DNA from: Lytechinus pictus
Lineage: Eukaryota
Reading direction: 5' to 3'
NCBI RefSeq assembly: GCF_037042905.1
Contig: NC_087250.1
Span: forward strand, 16,928,001 to 16,992,000
DNA: 64,000 nt
In this document: in pieces, positions 13,350-56,906 of the stretch
How the letters are laid out: the number at the start of each line of letters is the position of its first letter
How positions within the stretch are numbered: position 1 is the first letter of the stretch
Notes under the pieces: generated by a model
Seen by the model: only the letters and a program-made list of their open reading frames with translations
The model's database searches: none
What the model was told of the DNA's origin: nothing
Made by a program: the position numbers and the translations under genes

Positions 13350-13519
13350 TTACATTCTTTTCACAAATTTCACATTATATGGTTCTGCAAAGTCCCCGGA
13401 CTGGCCGAGGTCCGGTTCCGTTCCTTCTGGTAGAACTATCTGGAACTCTTGGATCAGGGCTATCATAGTCTTGAACAGGGTCCTGCGAGCGATCTTCTCC
13501 CCCGGACAGGAGCGCAGGC
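13350..13519 (-). CDS. Cytochrome P450 (clan 2, CYP2-like) exon 7, last; heme-ligating Cys
   Basis: Acceptor ccgatccAG, phase 1; completes PFGVG-LRSCPGE; ends ...KFVKRM-TAA. Confidence 0.93.
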
Positions 13520-13769
13520 CTGGATCGGTTAAAGATAAATTCAAATAGTTGCAATCAACATTAACTGGGGCGTGATTGTGGCTCGACGGTAGGGCCCCAG
13601 CCTCATGAACGGGTGGTTATAGGTTCAATTTTATTCTTTATATTTTTTTTTAAATGGCACCTTCTGCTTTCTTGTTCGGCTTTTAGCGTCATTTGAGAAG
13701 GGTAATAATAGCAATATTGATAATGCATATGGATCGGGAGGGATAACATAAAGAAATACTGTTGGTGGG

Positions 13770-13976
13770 CCAGATTTGACGTTGGTGTACGAAAGCTCCC
13801 TATCCCAAATCGAGCATAGAAGGCATATGAGTCCCACTCTCTAATCAGCACCAATCAACTCATCTTGGTGAGGAGGGAAAATGAGTGGATTGGCGCCGAT
13901 TGGGGAGTGGGGGTCATAATATCCTCTATGTTAGATTTGGAATAGGGAGCTTCCATACGCCAAAGTCTTATCTGGA
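13770..13976. repeat. Imperfect ~200-bp palindrome (hairpin MITE) in the last P450 intron
   Basis: Arms of ~95 bp (CCAGATTTGACG...ACTCATCTT and AAAATGAGTGG...TTATCTGG) are clearly complementary with scattered mismatches. Confidence 0.7.
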
Positions 13977-14039
13977 CTAGGTCAGTGGTTGTGTTGTCTT
14001 CACGCGAGGACAAGTATAACGTTTATTCTGTTTGAACTA

Positions 14040-14365
14040 TCGTTATCTTTTTTGTATTGCTGCTTTTTTGGCCAAGATAGATTTAAGTGTTATACGTTAC
14101 AATTTTTTTTCTTTATGAGTGGTCCACCCTTTACAAGCTTTGATTTTTAGTGGGCCACTCCATTTTCCCAACATATCTTGCATATTATTATCAAATTGGA
14201 AATATTATCTTCTGTATCAAGTGTATATCTTTTATATTTGGTTTATTTGAATATTTATGTCATTTATATTGTCTGATGTTATGTTTTATATATTGTTATT
14301 ATTGCATTGTAAAATTTGTTGGAAAAATGAATAAATAAATGAATGAATGAATGAATGAATGAAAT
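14040..14365 (+). mobile_element. 5'-truncated LINE 3' end with (GAAT)n tail
   Basis: T-rich 3' UTR, short stem-loop, AATAAA, then (TGAA)n. Similar tails at ~6010-6410 and ~27060-27210. Confidence 0.5.
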
Positions 14366-15025
14366 GTTGAAAAAATGACCGTCAAATGACACACGAAAAA
14401 ATGATGAACCGGAAAAGCAGTTTCGTCCGAAGTTTCGGTGCTGACGAAGACAAAACTGCTCTTTTAATTCACCTATTTTCGATGATTCTTCTTGGATGCT
14501 ACTTGCCCCCCCCCCCTCCCTGGCGTAAATCCTAGCGCTGAACCTATTGTTCAAGAGGGATTATCTATTGTTATTGACATCACGGATTTATGCTAAATGC
14601 CCCCTTAAAAATACTGACTCTCTGTTTGACTAGGATTCAACTGTCACGTTTTCTGTTTCTCTCTGGCGAAAAGAATATTCTGTTTTCTGCACACCAAGAC
14701 TAGGGAGTGTTCGCACTGCAACGGAGAACGGATTCATGAACACAGTAAATGTATTGAAAATGCCCGTCAAATGACACAGGACAGCTGGGAGGTCTTTGTC
14801 GGAAATTGGTGAACCGGAACAGCAGTTACGTCCTAAGTTTTAGTACTGACAAAAACTGTAAATAAGTCGTTTGGCCAGATTCCATGATAAAACTGTTTTG
14901 ATTCACCTATTTTCGACAAAGAAATCTTGGTTGTTCTTTGTCATGAAGGGCATTTGACAAAACATTTTCTTGGATCTTGAATCCGCTGTGCGTCGTGTTG
15001 CGAAAACTCCGTATTAAATTCTTAC

Positions 15026-15368
15026 CGACACCAAAAGGCGTGTGGAGTTGAAACTTGTTGGCATCCAGTTGAAAGTGGTCCGAACCGGTTCCATTCAGAA
15101 AAAATCGCTCCGGTCGAAACACACGAGGATCACCCCAAACCTTCGGATCGTTCGACATCTGCCATAGGTTTGAAATGATTGTTGTTCCTGCTTCGATGTG
15201 GTAGTCGTCGACCGTTTCGTTAGCCGTGGCGAAGCGAGGGACACCAAGGGGAGAGTGGTGGTGGATGCGATCGACCTCGGTCAAGAATGCGACGGTTAGA
15301 GGAAGTCGGGTCCGGTTTTCGTAGGTGATATCCGTGTAATGACCGAATGAGTTGATCTCTTCAAAGAT
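15026..15368 (-). CDS. Cytochrome P450 exon 6 (K-helix ExxR, PERF, start of heme loop)
   Basis: IFEEIN...TEVDRIHHHSPLGVPR...FRPERFF...TPFGV-G; acceptor aattaAG; donor G|GTAAG; 343 nt. Confidence 0.92.
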
Positions 15369-15738
15369 CTTAATTTTAAAAACAACGACAAAACATACCA
15401 CTGAATTAAGATAACGAACCAGGATGTAATGTGATGCCTTTTTTCAGGGATGGGATTAAGAAAATCCAAAACGGGGAACGACAGCTGCTCCCCCAAAAAA
15501 GTTGACGGCCTTTTTGCGTGACGGAAAGTTCGAAAGAAGAAATTGCGTCTTCTAACCCCCCCCCCCCCTTGGCCTTCCTCCTTTCAATGTCGCATGATAA
15601 CGCCACAGATAGGACACAAAAGCGGAGCGAACTGACTAACACTATGTGTGGCCTATGAATAGCAAAATAAATCTAAATATATACATTTTGAATAACCATC
15701 AATAACACAGAGAAAGAATTAGCCTTTGATTCTATTCT

Positions 15739-15922
15739 GCTGGGTGTTGTGGCGTGCGCCTGTAATCCAAGCTGTGGGGAGGTTACAAATTGATGCAGAG
15801 GTTCGAGGTTCGAGCCCTGGTCACGTCTTTCGGATGGTGACGTTAAAGGTCGGTCCCAGACGTAAATAATCATATCTGATTGATACACGTCTGACAAAAC
15901 TCAAATACACACACACACACAC
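15739..15922 (+). mobile_element. SINE with 7SL(SRP)-RNA-derived head, B box, Meta-like core and (CA)n tail
   Basis: 5' GCTGGGTGTTGTGGCGTGCGCCTGTAATCCAAGCTGTGGGGAGG aligns with the 7SL Alu-domain 5' end; GGTTCGAGCCC at 15807-15817; core CTTTCGGATGGTGACGTTAAAGGTCGGTCCC. Confidence 0.75.
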
Positions 15923-16703
15923 TCATGTTCAAGATGAAAGTACTTCTTATAGGCTAATTGGTAACATAATCGGTGTGGAATGAACGTACTGAGTCGTGAC
16001 TTAGTGTGTTATCATACAAGTGGGCCTATGCTACAAAACGTAGCTCAAGAGGTTGCATGATGCTGGTCAGATGTCTGTAGTTGAATATTACCTGAGGTGG
16101 CGCTATTAAGGTTAGTTTGTTGCTGCTTTAAAACACCGATCATTGTAGCGCGTTGGGAGTTGTGGTATGTATCAATCATGCTTTTGTGAAACTTGAAAGA
16201 TCTATCCCGCTCAGTTCCTCGTTTCGGCACAGCGCTTGCCATGCATCATATATTTCCTATTTAAATATGAATGAATTTCCACCGTGAAACGAGCTGCGCA
16301 TGGCGGAAATCTCTTCGAGTTGTTTGGATTAGGCTAATCATTCTTTTATGCTTTTATGAGAAGCAAAGGATGCTGCCCACATTCAAGGCCCATGCTAGTC
16401 TTTGATTTGAAATACAGTTATAGAATATACCAGATTTTTAGGGCTCCCATATGAAAACAAAGATGCAAATGAGAACCCTTATGTCTTGTATTATTAGGAA
16501 TCTTCGGAAAAGGGGTTCCCAAAAAGATTCCCTACGTGCTAAAGAACCTCTCATTGTTAAATAAAGAACCTGACATTCTTCAAAAAGGGCTGTTTAATGT
16601 ATTTTGGAACCTTTTAGGTAACCTTTAAAGGTTCGAACTTCCAAATACGGGACAGTTATAGGACATTCTCAGAGGCTTTCTTCTAAAAGTAGATGCTATA
16701 TAC

Positions 16704-16970
16704 CTTGTGTTGATAGTCCTGGTAGGCTGCTAAATACAAACACATCCAGCGTACGATTTGAGGAATGCTACTGTGGCCAGAGAAGAAGAGGTCCACCGAC
16801 AATCTCCAGCCATCGTCGGGATCGCTCTGCGTTGTCATGCCATCGGCACGGAGACCGTTGATATACCGTTCGTACATGACTACAAGACTGTCCGGTTCTT
16901 CAGACGGTGACGATGGCGCGGACAGGGCCTCCGCTGCAAGAAGCTTGGTGTGATTCGCGAATCGATGGAG
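16704..16970 (-). CDS. Cytochrome P450 exon 5 (G-I helices)
   Basis: LHRFANHTK...VDLFFSGHSSIPQIVRWMCLYLAAYQDYQHK; acceptor cttccAG; donor AAG|GTATA; 267 nt; phase 0/0. Confidence 0.9.
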
Positions 16971-17393
16971 CTGGAAGATAAGGTCATAGTAATCAATGTT
17001 GTTCTGATGATGATGGTGATTATGATGACGATGATGATGGTACACTGTTAGAAAAATTGATCCTTAAAATAAAACAAGTTCCTGCAGCAGAGTCTCGAGA
17101 ACACCTGGGGCCTATTTCATAAAGAGTTGCTATCATAACAAGTTGCTATGATAGCAACTCTGGTAGAATAGCAACTTTTACTTGCTATGCTAGCAACTTT
17201 GCATTTCATAAAAGCACATTCGCTGAAAAGTCAGCTTGACTTTCCAGCTATTTATTTGAATAGTCATGTACGAGGCTGATTAGGGGGAAATCCCATTTCT
17301 CTCCAGTTTTTTGTTTTCAATTCAAGTCATAAGTTTAGGTAGAAAGCACTGGCGGATCCAGGGGGGGGGGGCACAGCCGGCCCGTGGCCCCCC

Positions 17394-20300
17394 TGTTACA
17401 CCCACAAATGTAATAATCGCCCACAAATGTAATAACGCCCACAAATGTAATAACACTTTACCCACAAATGTAATAACGCCCACAAATGTAATAACACTTT
17501 ACCCACAAATGTAATAATTTCACCCACAAATGTAATAATGCACTTTACCCACAAATGTAATAATTTTTGATCGCCCACAAATGTAATAATGACTTTACCC
17601 ACAAATGTAATAAATTTGAAGGGATTTTTGGCGAATCTGTTCTAAACTAAAATCCTATAGTAATGCGTTCATATAGCACAAAAGTGCAAAGTCTTTTTTC
17701 CAGACCTGGTTAATAAAACATTATAGTACAATTCCAAAGTCTATTTCCAGACCCGGTTGTTTCAAAATTATAATATACGTCCAAAGTCTTTTTTCCAGAC
17801 CCGGTTAATTTAACAATTATAATGCAAGTCCAAAGTCTTTTTTCCAGACCCGGTTGTTTAAAAAATTATGATATACGTCCAAAGTCTTTTTTCCAGACCC
17901 GGTTAATTCAAAAATTATAACGCAAGTTTAAAGTCTTTTTTTACAGAACCGGTTGTTTCAAAAATTATAATATACGTCCAAAGTTTTTTTTCCAGACCCG
18001 GTTAATTCAAAAATTATAATATATGTCCAAAGTCTTTTTTTCAGACCCGGTTGTTTCAAAAATTGTAATAAACGTCCAAAGTCTTTTTTCCAGACCCGCT
18101 TGTTTCAAAAATTATAATGCAAGTCCAAAGTCTTTTTTTCAGACTCGGTCGTTTCAAACATTAGAATATAAATCCAAAGTATTTTTTCTAGACCCGGTTG
18201 TTTAAAAAATTATGATATACGTCCAAAGTCTTTTGTCCAGACCCGGTTAATTCAAAAATTATAATGCAAGTCCAAAGTCTTTTTTCCAGACCCGGTTAAT
18301 TAAAAAATTATAATATACGTCCAAAGTATTTTTTCCAGACCCTGTTGTTTCAAAAATTATAATTTACGTCCAAAGTCTTTTTTCCAGACCCGGTTGTTTA
18401 AAAAATTGTAATGCAAGTCCAAAGTTTTTTTTTCAGACCCGGTCGTTTCAAACATTAGAATATAAATCCAAAGTCTTTTTTCCAGACCCGGTTGTTTCAA
18501 AAATTATAATATACCTCCAAAGTCTTTTTTCCAAAACCGGTTAATCAAAAATTATAATGCAAGTCCAAAGTCTTTTTTCCAGACCCGGTTGTTAAAAAAA
18601 ATTATAATATAAGTCCAAAGTCTTTTTTCCAGACCCGGTTAATAAAACATTATAGTACAATCCCAAAGTCTTTTTTCCAGACCCGGTTATTTCAAACATT
18701 AGAATATAAGTCCAAAGTCTTTTTTCCAGACCCGGTTGTTTCAAAAATTATACTATACGTCCAAAGTCTTTTTTCCAGACCTGGTAGTTTCAAAATTATT
18801 ATAAGTCCAAACTAAGATAATGATATTTTAGTTGAATAAAATGAGAATCGAGCTCAGTCTTTTCTCCAGACCCAGTCAATTGAAACTGGTGGAAATGTAA
18901 CAAAGACCCCAACTCTTTTGTAAATGTTAAATAACATGGAAATATAGCGTAGTCTTTCATCCAGACCCAGATCTTTCAAATAACAAATGAATAATAATAA
19001 TAATAAATTATTTATAATAAAAAAGCAAACAACGACCCACGATCCTATTTATGTTGAATAACATGGAAATATAGAGTAGTCTTTCCTCCAGACCCAGATC
19101 TTTCAAATAACAAATGAATAATAATAATAAATTCGTAATAATAAAAAAAGCAAACAAAGACCCACGATCCTATTTATGTTGAATAACATGAAAATATAGC
19201 GTAGTCTTTCCTCCAGACCCAGACCTTTCAAATAAAAAATGAATAATAATAATAATAAATTAGTAATAATAAAAAAAGCAAACAAAGACACACGATCCCC
19301 TTTATGTTGAAAACATGGAAATATAACGTAGTCTTTCCTCCAGACCCAGTTATAAAAGTCATTTAAAACACAACAACAACAAAACAAAGACCCTGCAATC
19401 TTATCATCATTGAATAACATGGAAATATGGTGTAGTCTTTCCTCCAGACCCAATCATTTCAAAATAATCAAAATCATTAAAAAAGAATAACAGAATCTAA
19501 GGCCCAACTATCCTTCAAACTAAGAACCTTCAATAAATAAAAGTTTAGAGAGTTTTCTTTATTCCAGACCTTGTCATTTAAAAAATAAGATAAATGAAAT
19601 CCTCATGACTAAGACTCAATCATATTCTTGTGCCTGTTCAACATGAATAAGATGATTGGGGGAGTATTTCATCAACATTTATGTCCGACAAGTTGTCAGA
19701 TCTGACAACTGTTCTTGATGTTGATTGGCTAAGAAGCAGTGCTACCAGTGTCGGATAAAACGTCAGACAACTCCTTTCATGAAATGCTCCCCGGGCTCTA
19801 AGTTTTGATGTTGTTTTTTTATTATAAATTTCTTTGCCTGGAAGAAAAAATGAATGTTTAATTGCATCATTTATTATAGGATGTTGGCTGGAAGAGGGTT
19901 AATTTTTTTTTTTCTGTTTTTTTTTTAACAAACTGGTCTGGTCAAATTAAGTATGCGTTATCACAAGGGTTTATAGTTTGGAAGATGCTGGGGTCTAAGT
20001 TTTAAGATTAATGTTTCGCTTAATTTGTATTTTAAAGAGAACTGGGTGAGGGGTAAACACAACACTCTAAGCCCAAGCATTTTAAGTTGGTTTAATTTTG
20101 AAGATTGGTCTTAGCTGTGAATTTTTTTCAATATTTGTTTATCTTTTAAATAACCGGGTCTAGACGAAAGACTAAGCATAATACTCGTGTTATTCCACAA
20201 GAATAAGAATATGACAAAGTCATATTCTTATTATATTTTATGATTGTTTAAATCATTTTTAAATTACTGGGTCTGGAATAAAGACAACGCTCTAAACATG

Positions 20301-22157
20301 TGCTTTTCTACATGCATGGTCTTAATTTGGAGGATTGTTGGTTCTAAGATTCGTTTTGGGGGTTGGGTTTTATTGATTTTTTATTCTTGAAATAATTGTG
20401 TCTGGAGGAAAGTCGATCTTCGACAATCGGTCTTCATGTTATATCACAATAATTAGATTATTGGGTATTCGTTTTAGAATATTTGTAAAAACTACTTTAT
20501 TTTTTTCAAATAATAACCAAGTCTGGAGAAAGGATGTTTGCTTTACCCATGCATTATTACAATGTTTTGTAGGGGTCGTAGTATTTTTTTTTTTAAATGG
20601 GTGTGGGGTAAAGACATATTTTTTTACTGGGTGAAACTTTGGAAAATTGGTTATAGATTTGAAGTTTTTTAATTCATTTTTTAATAGCCGGGTCTGGAGG
20701 AAAGACTTTGGACTCATATTGTAATTGTTTAATTATCCGGGTCTGGAAAAAAGACTTTGCACTTTGGTGCTATATGAACGCATTGCTATAGGGTTTATTT
20801 TTTAGTTTTAAGTAACCGGGTCTGGAGAAAAGACTACGCTTGATTCTCAATTTACTCTTAGTGCACATATTCAAAATATACGCCGTATAAGTTAAAACAA
20901 CAACAAAGACATTAATTCCGCCAGTTTTGATTAACTGGGTCTGGAGAAAAGACTAAGCTCGATTCTCTTTTTTTTTCCACTGGAATATCATTATCGTATC
21001 TTAGTTTTGACTTATATTATAATTTTTGAAATAACCGGGTCTGGAAAAAAGACTTTGGACTTATATTATAATTTGTGAAATAACCGGGTCTGGAAAAAGA
21101 CTTTGGACTTATATTATAATTTTTTAAACAACCGGGTCTGGAAAAAAGACTGGACTTATATTATAATTTTTTAAACAACCGGGTCTGGAAAAAGACTTTG
21201 GACTTATATTGTAGTTGTTTAATTATCCGGGTCTGGAAAAAAGACTTTGCACTTTTGTGCTGTATGAACGCATTGCTATAGGGTTTATTTTTTAGTTTTA
21301 AGTAACCGGGTCTGGAGAAAAGACTACGCTTGATTCTCAATTTACTCTTAGCGCATATATTCACAATATATATATATATATATATATATTATAATTTTTG
21401 AAATAATCGGGTCTGGAAAAAGACTCTGGACTTATATTAAAATTTTTTAAACAACCGGGTCTGGAAAAAAGACTTTGGACTTGCATTATAATTTTGGAAT
21501 TAACCGGTTCTGAAAAAAAGACTTTGGACTTGCATTATAATTTTTGAAACAACCGGGTCTGAAAAAAAGACTTTGGACTTGCATTATAATTTTTGAATCA
21601 ACCGGGTCTGGAAAAAAGACTTTGGACGTATATTATCATTTTTGAAACAACCGGGTCTGAAAAAAAGACTTTGGACTTGCATTATAATTTTTGAATCAAC
21701 CGGGTCTGAAAAAAAAGACTTTGAACTTGCATTATAAATTTGGAATTAACCGGGTCTGGAAAAAAAGACTTTGGACGTATATTATAATTTTGAAACAACC
21801 GGGTCTGGAAAAAGACTTTGGACTTGTACTATGATGTTTAATTAACGTCTGGAAAAAACACTTTGCACTTTTGTGCTATATGAACGCATTACTATAGGAT
21901 TTTAGTTTAGAACGGATTCGCCAAAAATCCCTTCAAATTTATTACATTTGTGGGTAAAGTCATTATTACATTTGTGGGCGATCAAAAATTATTACATTTG
22001 TGGGTAAAGTGCATTATTACATTTGTGGGTGAAATTATTACATTTGTGGGTAAAGTGTTATTACATTTGTGGGCGTTATTACATTTGTGGGTAAAGTGTT
22101 ATTACATTTGTGGGCGTTATTACATTTGTGGGCGTTATTACATTTGTGGGTGCAACA
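17394..22157. mobile_element. Foldback element with modular inverted arms
   Basis: Termini TGTTACACCCACAAATG... / ...CATTTGTGGGTGCAACA; outer domain of CCCACAAATGTAATAA units, inner domain of ~60-bp AGTCTTTTTTCCAGACCCGGTT units, mirrored on both sides; inserted in a C-run. Confidence 0.9.
19658..19793. mobile_element. Harbinger-type MITE inside the foldback loop
   Basis: GGGGAGTATTTCAT...ATGAAATGCTCCCC; reverse-oriented relative of 29296-29454. Confidence 0.7.
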
Positions 22158-22889
22158 CCCCCCCCCCCCCCCCCACCTTTGAGAAGCAAAATTAGAAGAA
22201 AAAAAATTGAAAGAGAATATGATTTTTTTTTTGTTGCTTAATAATTTTTTCGGGAGCGAAATTATTATTTAGCAGCTGCAAACAGGGTCTGCAGCATAAG
22301 ACTAGCAGTTGAAGCAGAGTGATGGCTACTATGCGTATGGCGATAGTTTGCAATTCTAGAAGAGAGTAAGAAGAAAATATAAATTTGTCACAGGATGGCA
22401 TAGCATTGTTTCTCCATTGTGTAAGTTTTCAGAGAATTGATTTAATTTAGCCCTATGCCAGGGAAAAAATTATTTTAAAAAGGGGGAAAATTTATTATTA
22501 TTGCCGGTCGAAATTTCACCTTCAACAAAGTTTTTACGGTACAATTTTCATCCCAGTCCCACACTTGATTATTTGTGTCGGTAATGCAAGGTTGTATCAA
22601 CAACAAGGCAGGCGCAGGCCACTGCTGGTGCAGTGCTATTAAAAATCTCCCTGAAGCAAGTAAATTTGTAGGCTCTAATGCATGAAACATCGAAAATGAC
22701 CTTAAAAGATTATTTTTGTTCAAAATGGAAATGATTTTTAAGTTATCGGTTTCAACGGTGAATAACCATTCACTATTCAGTAGGCCTAAAATGGATTCAA
22801 CAATGCCATGGCCACAACTTTTTTTTTTGAGAAAAAATCAGAAAGTCAGAAACAGAAAAAAAAAAAGCAATCATTTTTTTATCGCATAC

Positions 22890-23318
22890 ATTCGTAATTC
22901 CGTAGCTTCATTATTCCGAAGGTTCGTTAGTCAGAAAACGAAGTGAGGTTCGTAATTCCGAAGGTTCGTTAATCCGAAAACGAAATGAGGTTCGTAATTC
23001 CGAAGGTTCGTTAGTCCGAAAACGAAATGATTAACGAACGTTATTTCGTTTTCGGACTAACGAACCTTATTTCCTTTTTCGGATTAACGAACCATCGGAA
23101 CAACGAACCTTATTTCGTTCTTGGATTAACGAACCTTCGGAACATCAAACCTTATTTCGTTTTCGGATTGTCGAACCTTCGGAATAACACCACAAATGTT
23201 CGGATTAACGAACCCTTTTACGTTTTCAGATTAACGAACGTCGAGGTATAGGCAATTTACGTGTTTCGGAATTACGGACCGTCGGAATAAAGAACCTTCG
23301 GAATTACGAAGTGTAACC
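22890..23318. repeat. Small foldback-like element of TTCGGA(T/C)TAACGAACC units in opposing orientations
   Basis: Unit orientation switches near 23030; ends TTCGGAATTACGAAGTGTAACC. Confidence 0.7.
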
Positions 23319-24190
23319 TTTTTTATGGCCTAGGGCTTTTTTAATTTAGGCCTTAAATTAAACACTTCCACATAATAGATCTACCTTCCTCTATTTTTTC
23401 CCACAAGAAAAAAAATCCTCTCCATTTTTCTTTTTTTTTTAAAGTCTGTCTATAACCTCCCTTTTTTTCCCTTTGCCTGACCTGAGAAAGACTGAAAAAT
23501 TTGCTGTTTCGGAGGAATTTTTAAACATTTTTTTTTTAGGGGGATAGGTAGAACAAAAAAAAAAGAAACGGCATTTCTACTAGAAAGCATTACCTAAATA
23601 TATTCTTCATTAGCATTATTATCATAGACATTGCTCTAGATATCCGTTCTCTTGTAAGAGCCCTTTGGGCATGCCTGAGCACAACGTATGCCATTCTTCA
23701 CAATGAAAACCTTTTACAGTGTCAACTTGACGCTCCCCCATGACCAGCGTCAAATATGTAACCCTATTTGACGCTCCATTAACCATACTTGACGCTCCAG
23801 TAAAAAGTTGACGCTCCCACTGGAGCGTCAACTTTTTATGAAATGCGCTGCAGCGTCAAATATTAAATTTGACGCTGCAAGTGAAAATTTGACGCTGTTT
23901 TGGGACTTGACGCTGACGCTGTACCTTTATGAAATGGGCCCCTGTAATCTTACCAGATTGCGCAATCTTACATTATATCATGTAATATTACAGGAAATAA
24001 CTATTTGGTGTATGGAACCTTACAAATTTTCTTGAATAAAACACCCGTTTTCCCTTTTTAAACAGACCTGTTCTGTTGAATTACAGAAAAAATCCTGTTT
24101 TATGAATTTACAGAATGATTCTGTTATTGGTTTCTGCAAAATCTTCTTTTTTTCCCCTGTAAAATCAGGGTTTTTCACAGTGTAGCTACG

Positions 24191-24550
24191 ATGGTGGTGG
24201 TTATAGTTGTGGTGATGGTGGTGGTGGTGATGATGGTAGAGGTGATGGTGGCGACCATGGTTGTGGTGTTGGTGACAATGATGTTACTTATGATGATGGT
24301 TTTGATGGTGGCGATGATGGTGGTGGTAATAATGATGGTGGTGGTAATGATGATGGTGACGATTATGATATGGTGGTAGAGATGATGAAGGTAATGATGG
24401 TGGTGGTGATGATGAAGGTAATGATGGTGGTAGTGATGATGAAGGTAATGATGGTGGTAGTGATGATGAAGGTAATGATGGTGGTAGTGATGATGAAGGT
24501 AATGATGGTGGTGGTGATGATGATGATGATGATGGTGATTGTGGTAATGA
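24191..24550. repeat. (GAT/GGT)n simple repeat with 27-bp higher-order units
   Basis: Directly visible; source of spurious M/V- and P/S-rich ORFs. Confidence 0.95.
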
Positions 24551-24577
24551 TATGGAGCGGGTTTCAGTAACGCTTAC

Positions 24578-24942
24578 GTGGTTAAGATAAAGAGGAAGCT
24601 GGGCGCGAAGCACAGGAGAAGTTGGCATCGTCGCATTCGGTTCGAAGGTTATCTTCTGAACACTAAACACGTCGTTCACGAACGCCTCGTCATCGTCGTC
24701 ATCATAGACAAGACCCCGGTCGAAGTAGATGCGGTGGTTGACGTCGACGAAGAAAACGCGAAGCAGCCATTCGGGATCGAACGGAGATCCTTGTCGCGCT
24801 ATCAATGACGTCATAAGGGAGTTCACTGATTGGTCAATACGCGGTTGTACGTAGGTCTGGACGTAAGTTGTTTGTAAGATGGTTTGCCCCGTGAATTGTC
24901 GGATCTCCAGCCACGGCTGTCCACTCGTTTGAAACGTTGAAC
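24578..24942 (-). CDS. Cytochrome P450 exon 4 (C-helix WxxxR to F helix)
   Basis: GSTFQTSGQPWLEIRQF...GSPFDP...LYLNH; acceptor aattacAG; donor CAC|GTAAGC; 365 nt. Confidence 0.9.
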
Positions 24943-25726
24943 CTGTAATTAAAAAAATAAGTAATATTAAAAAGTGTTTTAATGATTATGTTGATTAAGT
25001 AAACTGATGATTCGTTGACCGTTTCATAAAACTTGTTATAATAACAAATAAGCAATAGTAGTTAAAAGCTACTGAAATCCTTCAATCCGATTGGCCGATA
25101 GTAAATTTGTTATAGGAATTGGCAATTTGTTATTTTTTGAACCGGGACCCAGATATGTATTAAACCCAATTAAAGTAATAGCACGGATAGGCTATTCCAT
25201 TAAAAAAAAAAGATATTATATTCCTTAGTCGTGCGTAAAACTTCTTCCTGTCTTCCTGGCAGACTGATTTATTTTTCTTTTATAGTTCATTTTAATTTAA
25301 TAATGCTAAGAATCAAACATTGATGAAGTGCGGTACTTTCCCTGCAAACAAAACATTTCTGACTTGTACAGTGCGTTCCACAAAAAATGAAATCGAGGTC
25401 GAGCGATAATTTATCATAATCGCAAATAATCGAAAATAAAATAGACAAATGACCTATCATTGTAAAGCTTAGAATTTCCTCTTTCATTTGACATAACATA
25501 CAATAATTCTTATCACGCATGAGTGAGTAAAAAAATTTGAAGAAAGGATAGCAAAAAGTCATTTGGCGGGGGGTATTAAATTTCAAAAAAATGAAAATCA
25601 CATGCCTACAAAGTTCAATATCTGCTCTTTAATTTGATAGCTTTATCACAGGAAATGGTCAAGAAATAAAGTTATGTTCCTTCGAAACAATACTTGTATT
25701 TTTATAATTCCATGAAATATTCGTGT

Positions 25727-27060
25727 TCATAGGTGGATCCAGGGGGACCCGAGGGGCCCGCCCCCCCCCCCCCCTATTGGCGAAGCAAAAAAAAGAAAAA
25801 GGGGGAAAGAAAGAAAAAAAAGAAAAAGGAGGGAAAAGAGCGGGAAAAAAGAAGGGGAAACATTAAAGTGGAAGACGAGTAAATAAAGTAAGATTGGGAA
25901 GACTTGGAAAAATAATTTTAGAAATCTTTCATGTCGGGATATAAAATTTTCGCTCGCGCTTCACGCTCGCATTGCCTTTTAGGTGATTTATATATCTTAA
26001 TTGCTCAATATAGAGCTTGAAATTAAAAGTTTTTAAGTCAATATACCAAACATATTTCAGCTCGGAAAACTGAACTTTCATTATATTGTTTGATTAACAA
26101 ATTAATTTTTAAAAAGTGCTCTGTAAAAATCTTTGTTTTATGGCCTGAATATTAACATTTTCTTATTGCGTGCGCGCTCGCAAAATTTGATTTGTCAGGT
26201 ACCCATTATTTTCCTGTATTCCATAAAGTTATCAAAATATCCCTATTTAGGTCAGATTGTCAAAACGTATCAGCTAGCGCTTCACGCTCGCATTTTGATT
26301 GGTGAGTTATGTATATCTCAATATCAATTCTAAAACAAACTACTTAAAATCCCCATTTGACATGTTTGATGACAATTTATAAAAAATTTCGGCTCGCGAT
26401 TTGTGCTCGCATTGATTGTTGAAAGATATTAAGTCATGCATCTTATTCATAATTACAAAAGTGCAGATTTCGCGCTCTCATGCTTAAGAAGAGAAATAGG
26501 AAGACAGTTATCATTTTCATATGATGACACAATGTCCTTATAGATTGTCCTGGTCCTATGTCTAAACTCAAATTAATAATAATGAAACATATCAGCTCTT
26601 TTTTTTTAACTGTGATCCATATCCACCTCCCAATTTTCCCACAAAGTGCTTGAAATACAAAGCTTATATTGATCCTTTTTCAGATCGGAATATCATATAT
26701 CTTTAGCTCGCGCTTTGCGCTCGCTTTATTGATTTTCATGATAAGAAAGATATATAGTATACCCAAATTCTAGTTCGAAATCTGAAACACACGTTTATTC
26801 AGATACGCAGCATGTTATCCAGTTTCAGATCACAATATCAAAAAATTGTCTGCTCGCGCTTTGCGCTCGCATTATTAATGTAGAAAATTTTCCAATCACT
26901 CCTCCTTTTCATGATTTACAAAACATGAATAGAGTGTCCAGGAATTTTCTGCTCGCACTTCGCGCTCGCATCAATAATGTTTAGTTAAATACTTATCCTT
27001 TTCACGATTACAAAAAGTTCCTAGAATTTCCATTCTTCAAGTAAAAATGTTAACATTTTC
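25727..27060 (+). mobile_element. hAT-like non-autonomous repeat with CTCGCGCTTCGCGCTCGCA units
   Basis: Starts ...GGTGGATCCAGGGGG; a reverse-oriented relative flanks the 44486-53229 element. Confidence 0.6.
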
Positions 27061-27838
27061 TTTTTGACGAAATACTATTTTGTTTTTGTTTATTTGCTTA
27101 TATTCCTTGCATTGTATATTTGTTTTGTAACATTTTGTACTTCTTGTTATGAACAAAATATTGGCAATTGCCAGTGAAGTTCTAATAAATTCAATTCAAT
27201 TCAATTCATGATCTACTGATAGATGTGATAAAAGAGGCAGTTTAAGTGAAATGTATAGAAAAATAATGGGAAAGTTGTTCACAAGTGACATCACACATCT
27301 TTGTCGCATTGCCAACTGGAGGATGTGCATTATGATAATTATCTAAACTTCAAATGCTCATAACTTTCCTATTATTTATTCAATTTCCTTTTTTTGTTGT
27401 TGATATGTTTCTTTGATTTTTCAGTTTTAACACGGGTTATCTTGTTTCAAAGGTTTCACTTTCCTTTAAGAACGACTGGTGATCCTTTCTTGTGGTAAAT
27501 GGTATATTCATTGGCGACGGTTTAGTGCGTAAGAAAGGATCACCAGTCGCTCTTAACATACGAACGGCTTTATGAAACGGCCCCCTGACCGACCAAAGCT
27601 AGTACGTTACTACCAAGTGCAAAATGTCTATCGAAATGGGGTCGGTTTCGTTGGTGTAACTATGGTATCATCCAGGGGCGGATTCAGGATTTTTCAAGGG
27701 GGGGGGGACATTCTTCCCGAGTAAAAATTTGACAAGCAAAAAAAATATCTTCAGTTTCAAAAGGGGGCACACTTGTGTCTGAACGTCACTATTACAAATT
27801 TTAATTGCGCCTCTCAAAAAAGGGGGCACGGACCGGCT

Positions 27839-29100
27839 CACAGTGGGCCGGGGCGAAACAAAAGTGCGCCAAAAGTCATTTTGGGCAATTTCAGATTTTT
27901 AATCTTTTTATGCCCAGCTGAAAGACAACACAAGAATACTTCAGCAATATTTTTCATTCCGGAATTTGAATAAAGGTTGTTAATTTCCTACCTCAAATCG
28001 GAAAATGTGACATTTTGCGAAATGTCGCGTATATGACAACCTAGTTGAAAAACAAACCATTTCACATGAGTTTTTTCATGTAGGAATCTGAAATGGCTCC
28101 CACATAATCCTGATATATTCTTTTTTCGTGTGAAAGGGTTCAAAGTAGATAAAAGACACCTTTCACGAGGTTTATAGGATGATTATTCCTCGAAATAGGC
28201 TGAAAATCCATGTTTTTTGCATTTACATTGGAATCGTTTAGATTTCCGTCTTAATTCTATAAGCATCATTTTTCCCGATGTCTAAGCATTAAGTCGATAC
28301 CAAATTTAGCTGCCCGTTTTTGCCCGTTGTCATGTTAGAGCCGATTTTACTTGAGACAACACCCAAAAAACCTGTTAAAAAACGGTCATTTTTATACAGC
28401 GCAGTCATCGTAGCGCACTGTATGGGTGTACATTGCCGTTCGCTTTTGCACGGCGAGGACGATTCCCCTTCCATTCCATGAAAATGACATGAATTCCGGG
28501 CATAATGTAACAAAATAAAGGTTGCTAACGCAAATAAGGGCTATACCCACGAACTCTTTCATAGTTAAAACTTACTTATAGAATAATTTCAGCCAAAAAC
28601 CCTCCTCATACTCATAGTGATATATTCGTGGTTTTATATACTCTGCGTTTTACACAAGTCAACACAGCTTGATAAAGCACGGTTAATATTTTTCAGATTT
28701 TAATTTTTGACATGAACCGGGTATTTTTTGTCTGTTTTACCGTTTTTTACAAAATTAACTCTTTTCTCTCTCTCTATCTGCATAATGGAAATTTAAGCAA
28801 CCTTTTAGACTTCTTTGTTTAAGAAAATCAAACACTTAATTTGCAATTAATTTTTGTATTTGCTTTGACAAAACCGAATATTGAATACCTCCTCGGATTT
28901 TGTATTTTTGTTCTGTTTTGAATTCCCTTTTTACCTTCAAAACAGAAATTAATGACTCCCCTCTATGTTAATTGCTCTGCAAACTAGCTGAGGGCTGCTA
29001 TACGGTACATACAAATGGTTGATAAATGGTCGTTATTTCTGTAAAAAACAATATGTCAAGCTCAATTATATGTTTTTGCTGTGTCTGTTTCCAAATTAGA
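27839..29100 (+). mobile_element. Probable Transib-like element end (one terminus only; right boundary approximate)
   Basis: Abrupt start CACAGTG that interrupts a GGCGGATTCAGG-type MITE; no matching CACTGTG end seen nearby. Confidence 0.4.
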
Positions 29101-29295
29101 AAAAAAAATTATCTGACAGTACCTTGATTATCAGAGGGGACATTTACAGATCTTTTTTTCCTCGTATTTTTAGTAAATATGGCACGTTAGCGATCACTTT
29201 GCAGTCGCTTTCTATAACGCAAAAAAATGCCAACAATCCTTATAACAAAGCAGCCTTTGTCGATCATTGGTGGATCAAAACAGCAGTGTCGTTCA

Positions 29296-29454
29296 GGGGA
29301 GCGTTTCATGGAAGGACTTGCCAGACGTTTTATCCGACAAGTCACGTTATATCCGACAGTTGCTATGGTAACATTGCCTCTTAGCCAATCATAATCAAGG
29401 AAAGTTGTCAGACATGACAACTTGTCGGACGAAAATGTTGATGAAACGCTCCCC
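29296..29454. mobile_element. Harbinger-type MITE
   Basis: TIRs GGGGAGCGTTTCAT / ATGAAACGCTCCCC. Confidence 0.75.
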
Positions 29455-29638
29455 CGTACTCTGTTCAAACGAAATATTGGCAAGTTTTTTTTTCCGGTGT
29501 CCGAATCTCAAAACGATGTTCTATTCTCATCCACCCACTTTCTACAATGACCTCTGAGCTGTCAATCGTAATTTGACGGTCATTTTCTATTCTGAAGAAT
29601 GCGTCTGCGAATATAATGATTTTTCCGTAACAACTTGC

Positions 29639-29812
29639 CTTCATTCTGCAGCGGAGACAGCATTATGTTAACGACTATTCGCCGTGTATTGAAGCTATCC
29701 GTTGAGGTGAATGCGTCCTTCATGATTTCAAGGTCACCGATGACTACTATCCGGGTATTACCAGCACCATATTGAAACACATTCCCGTAATTCAGTGTTT
29801 CATTGTATAGAA
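29639..29812 (-). CDS. Cytochrome P450 exon 3, with GC donor
   Basis: VLYNETLNYGNVFQYGAGNTRIVVIGDLEIMKDAF...FNTRR (typical YGxVF...VVxxD...KxAF beta-1/B region); acceptor ctcttaAG; donor AAG|GCAAGT; 174 nt; phase 1/1. Confidence 0.87.
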
Positions 29813-30607
29813 CTTAAGAGGGTAAGGTAATTCAAAAGGAAAAAAAGAAAAGGAACAAAGTCAGCTCATCACGTTTTTATAACTTTTCACAAATAGTCTC
29901 ATAAATGTCTTTCATATAGGCCTAGTTTTATATTTGAATGTTTTTTTTTGTTCATGTCTTCATGTACAATTTACTCATTGCTTAGTCAAAAAGTTTTTTT
30001 TTTTAAATTTTGTTGTAAATGCCCACCCTTGATAGTCTTGTAATAATTTCCGAAAAAACACACAAACGTGTAAGCACACTCACAATTCTGACATCGAGTC
30101 CTGGCATTATTTGATTCAATTGAGGACGATGTAGCGTGTACGTGTGTGTGTGGGGGGGGGGGGGTTCTGTGGGGGCAGTAAGTAAACACTTCAAATAGGT
30201 ATATGTTGGTACCCACTTTAAAACAAAATACTTATAACACGATTTTAACAAACACGATGCCCCAAAATATATTTAAACATTCGAAACTAATGCATTCAAA
30301 CAAATACAATCACTGAATAAATAAATACATAAATATACTTTCTAAACAATTGATCAATGCAAAAAAATAAAAATATACAGAATGATTAGTGTAGTAGATA
30401 TTTTTTCATTGTTTAGTTATCCAAAACTCACGGAAGACTAAAGATTAATACTATGCAAGTAAAATAACATGCAGAATACGATAAAAAGAATTACAGAAAA
30501 TCATGAAAAAAATGCAAAGAAATAAACAAAGAAATATATAGATAAAGGATTAAACAATAAATTGAAATTAATTACACAAACGAAGAACTATAACAAAAAC
30601 GAGTTAC

Positions 30608-30871
30608 CTTTTGCTAAACCAGTTGGGCCAACTTTAGCTCCCAAACCAAGTAGTTCCAAAGAACGAGCATCACCCGGGCCAGGTGGTCGTTTTATGGCCT
30701 CGACATCATCGACCACGGTGTTAGACTCCCCAGGAGGCAGGAACACCAATAACAACACAACGGAGACGGAGAAGAGTGCGGTGATGATAAGGAGGATGAC
30801 GCCGAGAAAGATGGATCGTTTATTTATCCCAGATCTTATAACACCATTTACATTTTTACCATCAATGTGAG
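30608..30871 (-). CDS. Cytochrome P450 exon 2 (membrane anchor and PPGP hinge); absent from the ORF track
   Basis: HIDGKNVNGVIRSGINKRSIFLGVILLIITALFSVSVVLLLVFLPPGESNTVVDDVEAIKRPPGPG...LAK; acceptor tttacAG; donor AAG|GTAAC; 264 nt; phase 1/1; no in-frame ATG before the anchor. Confidence 0.85.
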
Positions 30872-30921
30872 CTGTAAATTGAAGGCATTCAACAGTGTTA
30901 GCTGCTTATATATAAGTCAAT

Positions 30922-31232
30922 GGCCCGTATTCTGAAGTCAGGTATAAATTAGACCATGGTCTAACTCTGTGCTAAAATTATGGGAAGCCAAAAGTGTCAA
31001 AACTGTTATTAAGTTGTATTATTCTTATGTTTACTGTGCTCTTTCCTGATTATTCAATGGTGAAGACAATCATCTATTAATACTTACTAGACAATAGTGA
31101 ATGATTTGAGAGACAAATCAACTGAAATATGATATCTCTACTGTTAGTGATTTATGTAACAATTGTCTATCCATACTTAAACCACAACTTTAAACCCGAG
31201 TTTAAGTTTAACCCGAATTCAGAATACGGGTC
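30922..31232. mobile_element. Harbinger-type MITE
   Basis: GGCCCGTATTCTGAA / TTCAGAATACGGGTC inverted ends. Confidence 0.65.
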
Positions 31233-32477
31233 AAGGTATTTCGCATGATGATGAAATAAGAAAAACGTTTGAAGGCATTTGGCACTTAATTAGCTTTTCA
31301 CGAATGTGAGCTGGATGTGTATAATGCAGCAAGATTGACTGTTTATTAGTCTTCTTCATGTTGATCATGTTGATGAAACAAGTAAAAAGTTTGAAGAAAT
31401 TTATTTTAGTACCTTTTCGCTATACTTTACCACCATTTTGAGCTGCACACATGTACGTATAAAGGATCATTTCTTTGTCCGCTTTAAAAGTACATGAAAC
31501 TATCAAACAAATTAGATAAACAAGCTGTTTTTGATTGGTTGGATATCACTAAATCATCTTTCCTTGTATATTTATATCATAAATCAAAGTCTGCCTTAAG
31601 TCTCTGGAAGAGGGTTGAATGTTAATTGCATTCAGGTATCAAATAAATACCCATACCTTACGGCAGTTCAGCGAACGATTATTTTGTTTATCCAATAATC
31701 ACGATGTCACATTTGAGAACAGTAAGTGCCTATTAAACGAGCCATTAAATCACCTTTATTTATGATTTTGAATCAAAATACGTTAAAATCAATCATGTTT
31801 GATCACATCTTTGATTATCTCCTTGAACATCCGGTGTACGGTTTTATTGTTTGGATCCATAAAACCACTAAACAAAATGTGGGGTATGAAAGCATATTCC
31901 TTTCTTTAAAAAAATACTGAAAGAAATATTTTGTCAGTTACAATTTACAAACATATTTTTTTTTGCGAATTCCTGTTTTGACAGTCGACTTATACTATAT
32001 TATATTACTCATATATATATATATATACTACAACCTTTACTACTGGGAAGAGCAATGTTCTACGGTGCGTGCTGCAGTGTTTTCTCAAGTGTGTGAAATC
32101 ACCTTCACACTTTTGAATTCGAGCATTTTAACAGTGTGAATCACATATTCACATATTCACGGCCATGTGAACACGCCGTTAACAGTCACACTGTCCAGGT
32201 GTCCACAGTGTGAAGCAGTGTCTTTTCCAGTCAACTACTTCAAATAATAAAAATTAGCAATAACAATAATAATGAAAACAATCATAATGATGATGATGTT
32301 ATTAATGATAATTGTGATAATAATAATGATGATAAAATAACAATGGTAATAATGATAATAAAGGTAATAACTATTATGAATGACTACGAAATTTATCATA
32401 ATAATAATCAGGATAATAATAACTATCAAATATTAGTCATCATGACAACAATTATTATGGAAAACTGTTTTACTCAC

Positions 32478-32493
32478 ATTTAGTATTCGCCAT
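32478..32493 (-). CDS. Cytochrome P450 candidate coding exon 1 (MANTK-S)
   Basis: cacaATGG start context; strong donor T|GTGAGT; phase 1 matches exon 2, giving a 1599-nt CDS (532 aa). Confidence 0.6.
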
Positions 32494-36290: not shown

Positions 36291-36439
36291 ATATGTTCTT
36301 AAATAGGTTTGATCGTCTATAGACTTCGAAAAAAATGTCCAGTGCTTTGACTCTGAGGTGAGGGTCAGATGAATTGCTGGTCATAGAAAACTAGGAATTT
36401 ACCCTAACGGTTAACCCAAAGGATTGCGATATTTTAAAG

Positions 36440-38795
36440 ACCCCTTTACATAGTGATACCAAGAGATTGATGCAAATACATGATATTTATTCTCTTGACT
36501 ATATAAATCGCACAACTGGCACTCGTATTACTGAAACTTCATCGAGTTTGATAGACCTAATGGTTACCAACAGGACTGACCAAGTAAAGGTGTCTGGTGT
36601 CGTTGATATAGGGTTGAGTGACCATGCGATGAATTATGTTGTCTGGGGATCATCTTACACTAACCATACTCCACGTACTATAACGTATAGAAAAATGAAA
36701 GGTGTCGACATTGACAAATTCTGTGAACAACTTGAAAAGCAACCATGGGAAAATGCATACTTAGCGAAGGATGTTGATGATGCTGTTCAACTGTGGGAAA
36801 ATTATTTGATGGATGTTGTCAATTCTATTATGCCTGTCAAATCAAGAAAAATGAAAAAGAAGCTGTCTCCATGGATAACTCCAGACATTACAAATCTGAT
36901 AAAAGAACGTGATAAAGCTAAAAGAAAGGTATGGAAAAGCAAAACTAGTGATGCTACAAATTTTTACCGAAAATTAAGAAATAAAGTAACCTCAAAGATA
37001 AGGAAGGCAAAAAAAACAATACTATGTTGATAAATTGTCCTCTGCAATGGGGAGATCTACTGAGGTGTGGAAGGTTTTTAGATCTGTCCTGCCAACGTCA
37101 CGTTCCAGCTGCAGCAGTTGTGAATCTAGTGTAACTGATTCTGTATACAAAGCTAATGAATTTCATACTTTTTTTTCTTCAATTGGCACAGAACTAGCCT
37201 CTAGTTTTAATGATGTTCAACATTCTACAAACGATAGGCCTACTGTCAGCGATACCATTAATACTAACTTTACTTTTCAGATGGTTGCTGACGAGGACGT
37301 TCGGAAGGAAATATTAAAACTAAGAGACAACATTTCTGTCGGTTTAGATGAGATTTCATCCAAGATCCTGAAGATGTGTGCTCCCATTATTGTTCCATAT
37401 CTTACCCACATAATAAACAGATCTTTTATCGAAAATAAATTTCCAAACCATTGGAAAAAATCTAAAGTCATTCCTATTCATAAATCAGGTAACAGAAAAA
37501 TCTCCAAATAACTTCCGTCCTATTTCAATTCTACCCACTGTATCGAAATTACTTGAAAGATTCGCTCAGCGGCAATTGATCTCATTTTTAGAAAATAATA
37601 AACTCTTATCTGAAGTTCAGTTTGGGTTTAGGAGTAAACACTCCACCTTAACTTCTTTAGTTAGAATTACATATCAGTTGATGCACGCTCCTGATCAGGG
37701 GAAATATACCGGGGCAGTGTTTATTGACTTAAAAAAAGCTTTCGACTGTGTTGACCCTTATTTACTTCTTAAAAAATTACGCAATATTGGTGTTTCTGAT
37801 GAATGTTTGCCATGGTTTAAAGATTATTTGCATAACATATTTATTTCTACTTGTCGTGGTTCTACTCTTTCTAGTCCTTTATCTATTTCTCTCGGTGTCC
37901 CACAAGGTTCTATTCTGGGACCTTTGCTATCTATTATTTTTATCAATGATATAACTTTATCTGTACATTTTTCTTCTGTTCAACTTTATGCGGACGATAC
38001 TGTTATTTATTTTTCTGATTTTAATGTTCAAAGTGTCGAAAATAAGCTAAATTATGATTTGTCGTTTATTTATAAATGGATGTGCAATAATAAGTTGACG
38101 TTAAATTTAGATAAAACTGTATCTTTACTTATAGGCTCGAGACATAGTTAAATAAATGTAATGTTTTAAATGTAAATATCAATATCAATAACATTGCATT
38201 TCAACAGTCTACTAATGTTAAATATCTCAGATGTGTCATTGACAATAAACTGAAGTGGGATGTCCATTTTGAAAACCTATGTAGAAAGGTCGGCAAGTTA
38301 GTCAAATATTTGGGTAGACTCCGCTATTTTATTAATGAGACAAATCTAAATTTGATTCACAAAGCCATTATCTTGCCCCTTTTCGACTATGCGGATATTT
38401 TAATTGATTCCTCTAATAAAAAACTTACCAAACAATTGCAAACCCTCCAGAATCGTGCAAGCAGAATAATAATGAAAGTCAACCCATATGATCATATCTC
38501 TAATGTGCAAATTCATTCAGTTTTAAATTGGTCTTCTCTTGAATCTAGACGTAAGAAAAATCTTAACATATTTGTTTATAAATCAGTCCATGACATGTTG
38601 TCTCCAATCATGTCCGATATGTTTCAACCCTCTTCTCATCATTATTCAATACGTAATTCTCATAACTTTGCTTTACCCAAACCCAAAACAGAATACTCTC
38701 GTCGCACTATCCAATACAGAAATGCATCTCATTATAATACTCTTCCCCATCACATGAAATAGTTAGAAAATATCGATGCCTTAGGCGTCTTGTCA
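36440..38795 (+). mobile_element. Decayed CR1/L2-group LINE ORF2 (C-terminal APE plus full RT), 5'-truncated
   Basis: TRITETSSSLIDL..SDH, WKKSKVIPIHK, QFGFR, FIDLKKAFD, GVPQGSILGPLL, YADD; broken by stops and frameshifts. Confidence 0.93.
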
Positions 38796-55788: not shown

Positions 55789-55893
55789 TTTGGTAGTACG
55801 GATGGGGTGCGGTTTCTCTTCAGATAACTGAGAACTATTGGCTTGGCCAGGTGTGTAACGATCAAGGAGTAAAAGACAAAAGAGGGTAGGAAG

Positions 55894-56838: not shown

Positions 56839-56906
56839 ATACACCCAGGGCTGAGAGCCAAGCCCTGGGTGTCTCTTCAGAGTCAGAGAGTTTTGAAAGG
56901 GGCTCT
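56829..56906 (+). promoter_or_regulatory. Programmed -1 ribosomal frameshift signal
   Basis: G_GGA_AAC heptamer directly before the gag TGA, 5-nt spacer, perfect 12-bp stem (56841-56852 / 56861-56872); loop AGAGCC can pair with GGCTCT at 56901-56906; -1 frame open into pol. Confidence 0.85.

Follow-up and report, generated by a model that had tools for sequence, protein, structure and literature searches.

The stretch of DNA analysed here (hereafter the window) comprises 64,000 nucleotides of the sea urchin Lytechinus pictus (assembly GCF_037042905.1, contig NC_087250.1, positions 16,928,001 to 16,992,000). It carries one cytochrome P450 (P450) gene on the minus strand, which was rebuilt from the splice sites in the DNA and spans window positions 32493-13350 in seven exons. 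The coding sequence of 1599 nucleotides yields a protein of 532 residues that is letter-identical to the RefSeq entry XP_063956637.1 (P0165), annotated as 'cytochrome P450 2J4-like' of L. pictus. The gene is already present in RefSeq as a prediction; the new part is the reading of its N-terminus, where the charges around the membrane anchor are reversed. The features of the gene, in window coordinates, are the following.

32478..32493, minus strand: exon 1, ATG plus 13 nucleotides (MANTK and the first base of codon 6), followed by a GTGAGT donor
30608..30871, minus strand: exon 2, coding for the basic N-flank, anchor, acidic linker and KRPPGP; 94% identical to the L. pictus protein P0002
30813..30857, minus strand: basic N-flank KNVNGVIRSGINKRS, net charge +4
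30738..30812, minus strand: hydrophobic signal-anchor IFLGVILLIITALFSVSVVLLLVFL, 25 residues, mean Kyte-Doolittle value 3.14, within a predicted helix at residues 23-49
30693..30737, minus strand: acidic linker PPGESNTVVDDVEAI, net charge -4
30675..30692, minus strand: KRPPGP, proline-rich hinge motif, P68-P71 almost invariant in an alignment of 85 sequences
29639..29812, minus strand: exon 3, sequon N97 at 29796-29804; followed by the GC-AG intron
24578..24942, minus strand: exon 4, DDDDDE run; sequon N254 (24629-24637) within the predicted F-G loop
16704..16970, minus strand: exon 5, sequon N279 at 16947-16955; S340-S341 of the I-helix (16767-16772), replacing the acid-Thr pair; C350
15026..15368, minus strand: exon 6, ExxR motif (E393-R396), PERF (448-451), sequons N380, N412 and N454
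13350..13519, minus strand: exon 7, heme-ligand C481 (13506-13508) in FGVGLRSCPG; includes the stop codon

It is near certain that the region represents an intact, expressed-looking, single-copy P450 gene of clan 2 (CYP2-like fold) with the features listed, which is known only in Lytechinus and is far diverged from all other P450s. When the L. pictus protein P0002 was compared to the window by tblastn, six collinear exon matches with identities of 87-100% were obtained. Five introns are of the GT-AG type and one, intron 3, is of the GC-AG type. Its donor at 29633-29638 reads GCAAGT after AAG, which is a perfect fit to the consensus of GC-AG donors. The gene is single-copy on contig C6 of the 812-Mb assembly, with the next genomic match at about 32% identity. 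Exon 2 was also sought in sequencing runs; no RNA run was listed, and one run of guessed kind gave a fraction of 0.16 of the words.

Intron 4 contains, shortly 3' of the donor of exon 4 (24190-24551), a microsatellite with units of 12, 15 and 27 base pairs (bp), which would give poly-His/Tyr or Ser-Pro-Leu runs on translation of open frames that continue from exon 4. A related His-rich stretch lies just 5' of the acceptor of exon 5 and is present in the L. pictus RefSeq isoform P0002 as 18 extra residues; no AG acceptor was found in the window directly before the stretch corresponding to this addition.

The encoded protein is a genuine P450 with a canonical CYP2-type fold and intact heme-binding machinery. 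Residues 76-513 match the Pfam family PF00067 with 199.2 bits (cut-off 22.8), and E393, R396, P448, R450, F474, G477, R479, C481 and G483 fall into invariant or almost invariant columns of the 85-sequence alignment. An AlphaFold2 model based on this alignment reached a mean predicted local distance difference test score (pLDDT) of 86.5 and a predicted template modelling score (pTM) of 0.85, and features one continuous long helix at residues 23-49. The top Foldseek matches of the model were CYP2D6, CYP2R1 and CYP2B (probability 1.00, template modelling scores of 0.82-0.86 on target length). By sequence, the best solved relatives were CYP2R1 (E=1.2e-32), CYP17A1, CYP1A2 and members of CYP2B, CYP2D and CYP2C.

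Members of a CYP family share at least 40% identity according to the nomenclature rule. Matches named CYP2 show identities of only 23-28% to the L. pictus protein, and the best match outside Lytechinus, from Diadema, reaches 33%. These values are below the 40% threshold, so that the protein, despite its '2J4-like' label, would not belong to CYP2 but would found a family of its own as an orphan within clan 2. A literature search returned no paper that combines 'Lytechinus' with 'cytochrome P450 2J4'.

The protein starts with an N-tail of 25 residues (MANTKSHIDGKNVNGVIRSGINKRS), which is followed by an apolar anchor of 25 residues, the linker PPGESNTVVDDVEAI and the KRPPGP motif. A preliminary description of the locus had reported a hydrophilic N-tail of about 25 residues with basic residues at its end, an anchor of about 25 residues and an acidic linker before KRPPGP, and all of these elements were found in the rebuilt 532-residue product. 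It had also assigned the charge asymmetry entirely to exon 2, which is correct for all charges except K5, encoded by exon 1; the basic flank is translated with any first exon that is joined to the exon-2 acceptor.

For comparison, the 150 best hits of one exhaustive HMMER search were filtered for single-domain proteins with a length of 460-560 residues, resulting in 96 representative relatives, 83 of which have a recognisable N-terminal anchor. Boundaries of flanks and anchors were set by a simple home-made rule. The charge difference between the flanks (C-terminal minus N-terminal, 15 residues each) is -6 in the L. pictus protein and -3 in that of L. variegatus, compared to a range from -2 to +6 with a median of +2 in the 83 anchored relatives. 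Both sides contribute to this value, since the N-flank charge of +4 exceeds the maximum of the relatives (+2) and the C-flank charge of -2 falls below their minimum (-1). When flanks of 10 residues were used, a negative charge difference occurred in only two of the 83. The charge reversal around the anchor is a strong outlier.

The residues responsible for the reversal, K11, R18, K23 and R24 in the basic flank and E54, D60, D61 and E63 in the acidic linker, are kept in all four Lytechinus sequences. Upon alignment, the asymmetry is hence conserved within the genus and unmatched in the 83 relatives. In microsomal P450s of type I, the N-flank is neutral or acidic and basic residues follow an anchor of less than 20 residues, whereas the corresponding values are +4, -2 and 25 residues in the protein analysed here. 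The mean hydrophobicity of its anchor (3.14) is typical for signal-anchors of P450 relatives in the endoplasmic reticulum (ER).

The catalytic domain features six sequons, all of the N-X-T type (N97, N254, N279, N380, N412 and N454), and the protein contains only two cysteines, C350 and the heme ligand C481. Both counts agree with the preliminary description. Six sequons compare to a median of two in the 83 relatives, only one of which has at least six. None of the sequons is located within 40 residues of the anchor. In composition-preserving shuffles of the domain, 1.59 N-X-T sites were expected, and the observed number of six was reached with P=0.0034. According to the AlphaFold2 model, N97 is located in helix 91-102, N254 in a low-confidence loop after helix 234-251, N279 in helix 261-290, N380 in helix 378-383, N412 right before strand 413-415 and N454 in the loop after 448-451.

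The number of two cysteines is also at the lower end of the spectrum (median of five; two or fewer in 5/83 relatives), and so is the cysteine content of 0.4%, with one of the 96 relatives at or below this value. The net charge of the catalytic domain is -14, while the median of the relatives is -1 and only two of the 96 are at or below -14. In a joint tally of flank charge, sequons and cysteines, the L. pictus protein shows all three deviations, while no two of them coincide in any of the 83 relatives. It combines the features of a lumen-facing, glycosylated P450, namely sequons in the catalytic domain (six N-X-T sites) and an anchor predicted to keep the N-terminus in the cytosol (flank difference of -6).

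The I-helix reads S-G-H-S-S and lacks the acid-alcohol pair of the pattern A/G-G-x-D/E-T. In the column of the acid, the protein has Ser, whereas 86 of the 96 relatives have Glu or Asp. In the Thr column it has Ser as well, compared to T in 85 and S in seven of the 96.

Microsomal P450s have a fixed topology in the textbook view, with the catalytic domain in the cytosol beside the reductase. With those of clan 2 (CYP2R1, CYP2D6, CYP2B, CYP17A1 and CYP1A), the urchin protein shares the fold as well as the PPGP hinge, WxxxR, ExxR, PERF and FxxGxRxCxG motifs. However, the identity in structural alignments is only 21-23%, and the urchin protein differs from them by its reversed anchor charges, 25-residue anchor, missing I-helix acid, two cysteines, six sequons and net domain charge of -14.

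The proteins of L. pictus and L. variegatus are 93.6% identical. Orthologs outside Lytechinus were not found in word-indexed protein searches, one of which used a cut-off of 1e-40 that was possibly too strict, and the exhaustive HMMER protein search yielded no relative outside the genus with more than 33% identity. The eukaryote genome searched for orthologs was that of L. pictus alone. The best matches from other genera are proteins labelled 'CYP2U1-like' of Diadema antillarum and D. setosum (P0015, P0163 and P0164) with 32-33% identity. These and the window protein are mutual best matches among the compared proteins (E of about 1e-80, compared to 1e-55 for the next) and have EP(E/D)DGW, SCPGE and other motifs in common.

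Nevertheless, the Diadema proteins were rejected as orthologs of the window gene. They show about 50% identity per exon to another L. pictus gene, located at G000:C5:3456000-3462000 (L009, L010), but only 27-44% to the window gene, indicating that they are orthologs of the former. Within L. pictus, the window gene has its closest paralog in this C5 gene, which is probably orthologous to the genes of the Diadema 'CYP2U1-like' proteins. A match from S. purpuratus (P0013) was likewise rejected as an ortholog, since it is a different clan-2 P450 with 31% identity over the C-terminal part.

Unlike the window protein, the C5 paralog and the Diadema proteins have normal anchor charges and an intact D-T pair. 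In the C5 paralog, the anchor (…VLVIANANRRRS…PGP) is followed by NANRRRS, and the I-helix reads AAADT. The Diadema relatives have an acidic N-tail, SDT in the I-helix, eight cysteines and 1-3 sequons. In the products of four intronless P450 genes of L. pictus, the N-tail is acidic or neutral, and there are 0-3 sequons and 3-8 cysteines. Since neither the anchor nor the acid-Thr pair is altered in the nearest relatives, the reversed anchor, the loss of cysteines, the gain of sequons and the loss of the acid are lineage-specific traits that were derived together on the branch leading to the Lytechinus gene. One tblastn segment of the C5 paralog runs through a stop codon just 5' of an exon and is probably intronic.

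The rule for signal-anchors is that the more positive flank remains cytosolic; in the accessible portion of one study on this subject, natural type II proteins have charge differences of about -2 to -4.5 (PMC2139883). For human families of single-pass signal-anchor proteins including P450s, mean charges of -0.13 on the exoplasmic and +2.51 on the cytosolic side are given in the part of a further source that could be consulted (PMC13220792). Synaptotagmin II was fully inverted once the basic cluster after its anchor was removed, and P450 anchors are described there as shorter than 20 residues (PMC2175286, in excerpt). Judged by these values, insertion with the N-terminus in the cytosol and the C-terminus outside is favoured in the L. 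pictus protein by the flank charges of +4 and -4 and by the N-tail of 25 residues.

The preliminary description had proposed such an inverted, type II topology with a lumenal P450 domain. This proposal is partly supported. The reversed flanks, which are kept in Lytechinus and unmatched in the 83 relatives, point in its direction, as do the gain of sequons and the loss of cysteines compared to the closest relatives and, as an additional finding, the replacement of the I-helix acid by Ser; the long anchor, the unexceptional charges of the proximal regions and the single sequon shared with the Diadema relatives speak against it. Overall, the type II reading is plausible and would be the likeliest single outcome, with a probability of roughly 45%.

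The most serious alternative, which is possible but less likely than a lumenal domain, is an ordinary microsomal P450 that faces the cytosol. Its long, very hydrophobic anchor would draw the unstructured N-tail of 25 residues to the lumenal side (N-out/C-in), the sequons would be idle and the oddities would reflect drift in a fast-evolving, lineage-specific P450 of the detoxification type. Several observations weigh against the type II reading and in favour of this one. The anchor core of 25 residues compares to a median of 19 and is matched or exceeded in only four of the 83 relatives, and such a long, very hydrophobic anchor argues for the ordinary N-out orientation. As far as the available text of the cited study extends, long apolar anchors near the N-terminus led to N-out insertion of as much as about 80%, although the charge difference was -3 (PMC2139883); the accessible part of a second source likewise lets long hydrophobic anchors prevail over the charge rule, and reports that the basic cluster after P450 anchors is not essential for normal orientation (PMC2175286). 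Translocated N-terminal extensions on P450s are also on record: an extension of 29 residues on P450 2C1 and the N-terminus of CYP79B3 are reported to be lumenal and glycosylated while the enzyme is normally oriented (PMC9118167, seen in part).

The sequons are a further point of doubt. In the composition-preserving shuffles, N-X-S/T sites of any kind numbered 2.94 ± 1.56, and six or more occurred with P=0.058. Because this total excess is marginal and the protein is rich in Asn and Thr, the excess of sequons is modest and the signal is weak when taken alone. Sequon N454 is absent in L. variegatus, so that five of the six are kept within Lytechinus, and only N279 (1/6) is shared with the Diadema relatives. 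A loss of the basic patch for reductase docking was considered as well but is not supported, as basic residues are no scarcer in the proximal regions than is usual. The C-D region, which faces the reductase, has a charge of 0 (25 of the 96 relatives at or below), and so has the region from the meander to the Cys (34 of 96), both within the range of the family; the start of the L-helix has a charge of +3 and is the most basic of all. The docking face is therefore not clearly lost. Also in line with the ordinary orientation, the KRPPGP hinge and every heme motif are normal, and the I-helix acid is absent in ten of the 96 relatives too.

What stands against a cytosolic domain is that the N-flank charge and the flank difference lie outside the values of all 83 relatives. 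Moreover, the flank charges are conserved in two species, and three independent oddities are joined in one protein, a combination found in none of the relatives. In the accessible text on engineered anchors, a protein with a sizeable N-domain and a charge difference of -4.5 remained type II although its anchor consisted of 25 leucines (PMC2139883).

Clearly less probable is a mixed topology, in which the charges and the length of the anchor would act against each other and result in one lumenal, glycosylated and one cytosolic population. Engineered constructs with conflicting determinants were split between both orientations (PMC2139883), and both determinants are strong in the L. pictus protein. 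However, the cysteine purge and the added sequons point to selection within a single main compartment.

An error at the 5' end of the predicted gene, with a true protein that lacks the basic tail, is improbable. An older model of L. pictus (P0166) indeed has a different first exon, which gave no convincing match within the window. Nevertheless, all four RefSeq models of L. pictus and L. variegatus share the exon-2 acceptor and translate the basic flank, and a start of the type M-x-N-x-K is also found in RefSeq models of both species. The exon-2 acceptor (TTTACAG) and the exon-1 donor (GTGAGT) are canonical, and an in-frame stop is located 17 codons 5' of the exon-1 ATG with no ATG in between. 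Exon 2 itself contains no in-frame ATG, and M1 is followed by no other Met before M124, so that any mRNA using the exon-2 acceptor translates the basic flank.

Least probable is a different kind of targeting, either as a monotopic hairpin or by a mitochondrial or other organelle signal with both ends in the cytosol or matrix. The basic tail and a stretch of 25-29 uncharged residues could suggest it, but it conflicts with the mean hydrophobicity typical of ER signal-anchors in the family, with the single continuous helix predicted for residues 23-49, and with a tail that contains Asp and has no site after it that looks cleavable.

In the type II reading, the anchor would insert mainly with its N-terminus in the cytosol. 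The P450 domain would thereby be placed in the ER lumen or in later secretory or surface compartments, where it would be N-glycosylated and would have no access to NADPH-P450 reductase. The protein may then work free of reductase, as an enzyme using peroxide or hydroperoxide, as an isomerase or as a ligand binder. The missing I-helix acid is consistent with an enzyme in which O2 activation coupled to the reductase has been given up. A more far-reaching scenario, tentative and less likely than the inverted topology as such, is that in one lineage the enzyme moved from the cytosolic face of the ER to the lumen or surface by a flip of the anchor charges. Purging of cysteines, gain of sequons, acidification of the domain and loss of the proton-relay acid would have followed, giving a glycosylated heme-thiolate enzyme run by peroxide or hydroperoxide.

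Human CYP2W1 is a clan-2 P450 reported to be lumen-facing and N-glycosylated, without access to the reductase. This is the closest situation to that of the urchin protein, whose 25-residue basic N-tail and six sequons are known from its sequence. Among the open papers searched, none was found that states the topology of CYP2W1 in its text, although reference lists contain titles on the subject. CYP74 allene oxide synthase, CYP8A1 prostacyclin synthase and CYP5A1 thromboxane synthase are reductase-independent P450s that have lost the I-helix acid/Thr for O2 activation. The resemblance of the urchin protein, with its S340-S341 pair, to these enzymes is one of a possible mode of working only: members of CYP74, CYP8A and CYP5A were absent from the 43 solved sequences with E<=1e-20 and from the listed Foldseek matches, all of which were of the CYP2/17/1 types or of the plant CYP73/76 types.

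The closest experiments are those with charge-engineered anchors of the asialoglycoprotein receptor and of P450s. In the constructs of the Sakaguchi, Sato, Kemper and Spiess laboratories, a change in flank charge or anchor length flipped the orientation, and the C-terminal domain became accessible to glycosylation, as far as the accessible parts of these sources describe them (PMC2139883, PMC2175286). The urchin protein resembles a charge-reversed construct; the constructs are artificial, whereas the urchin gene is natural and its reversal is conserved in two species. If the type II reading is true, a few charge changes in a signal-anchor could relocate an enzyme family to a new compartment, with adaptations following. 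Next to human CYP2W1, the gene would in addition be a second case, of independent evolutionary origin, in which the source of electrons or oxidant for a P450 in the lumen can be studied. L. pictus is in use as a laboratory genetic model. If the topology is ordinary, the gene represents a divergent orphan P450.

Apart from the P450 exons, the window contains several repeats and mobile elements. In intron 4, two blocks (17401-18811 and 21005-22151) consist of the same repeats in opposite orientation, namely units of 18, 23 and 41 bp (CCCACAAATGTAATAA...) and a satellite of 48-49 bp with up to 23 copies. About 2 kb of a 127-bp repeat lie between both blocks, and the arrangement looks like a large foldback or inverted-repeat element.

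Remnants of non-long terminal repeat (non-LTR) retrotransposons resembling long interspersed nuclear elements (LINE-like) are located on the plus strand at 36395-38762 and 850-1831. The frame at 37417-38151 matches RVT_1 with E=6e-32, and the adjoining frames are split into several open reading frames. Long open frames of a Ty3/gypsy-type LTR retroelement were found on the plus strand at 55873-61034. They include a frame of 1424 residues with aspartyl protease, reverse transcriptase, RNase H and integrase domains, preceded by a gag-like frame of 321 residues with a zinc-knuckle-like motif (CHRCHRMGHYAREC). The G + C content of this region is 0.46-0.47, which is above that of its surroundings.

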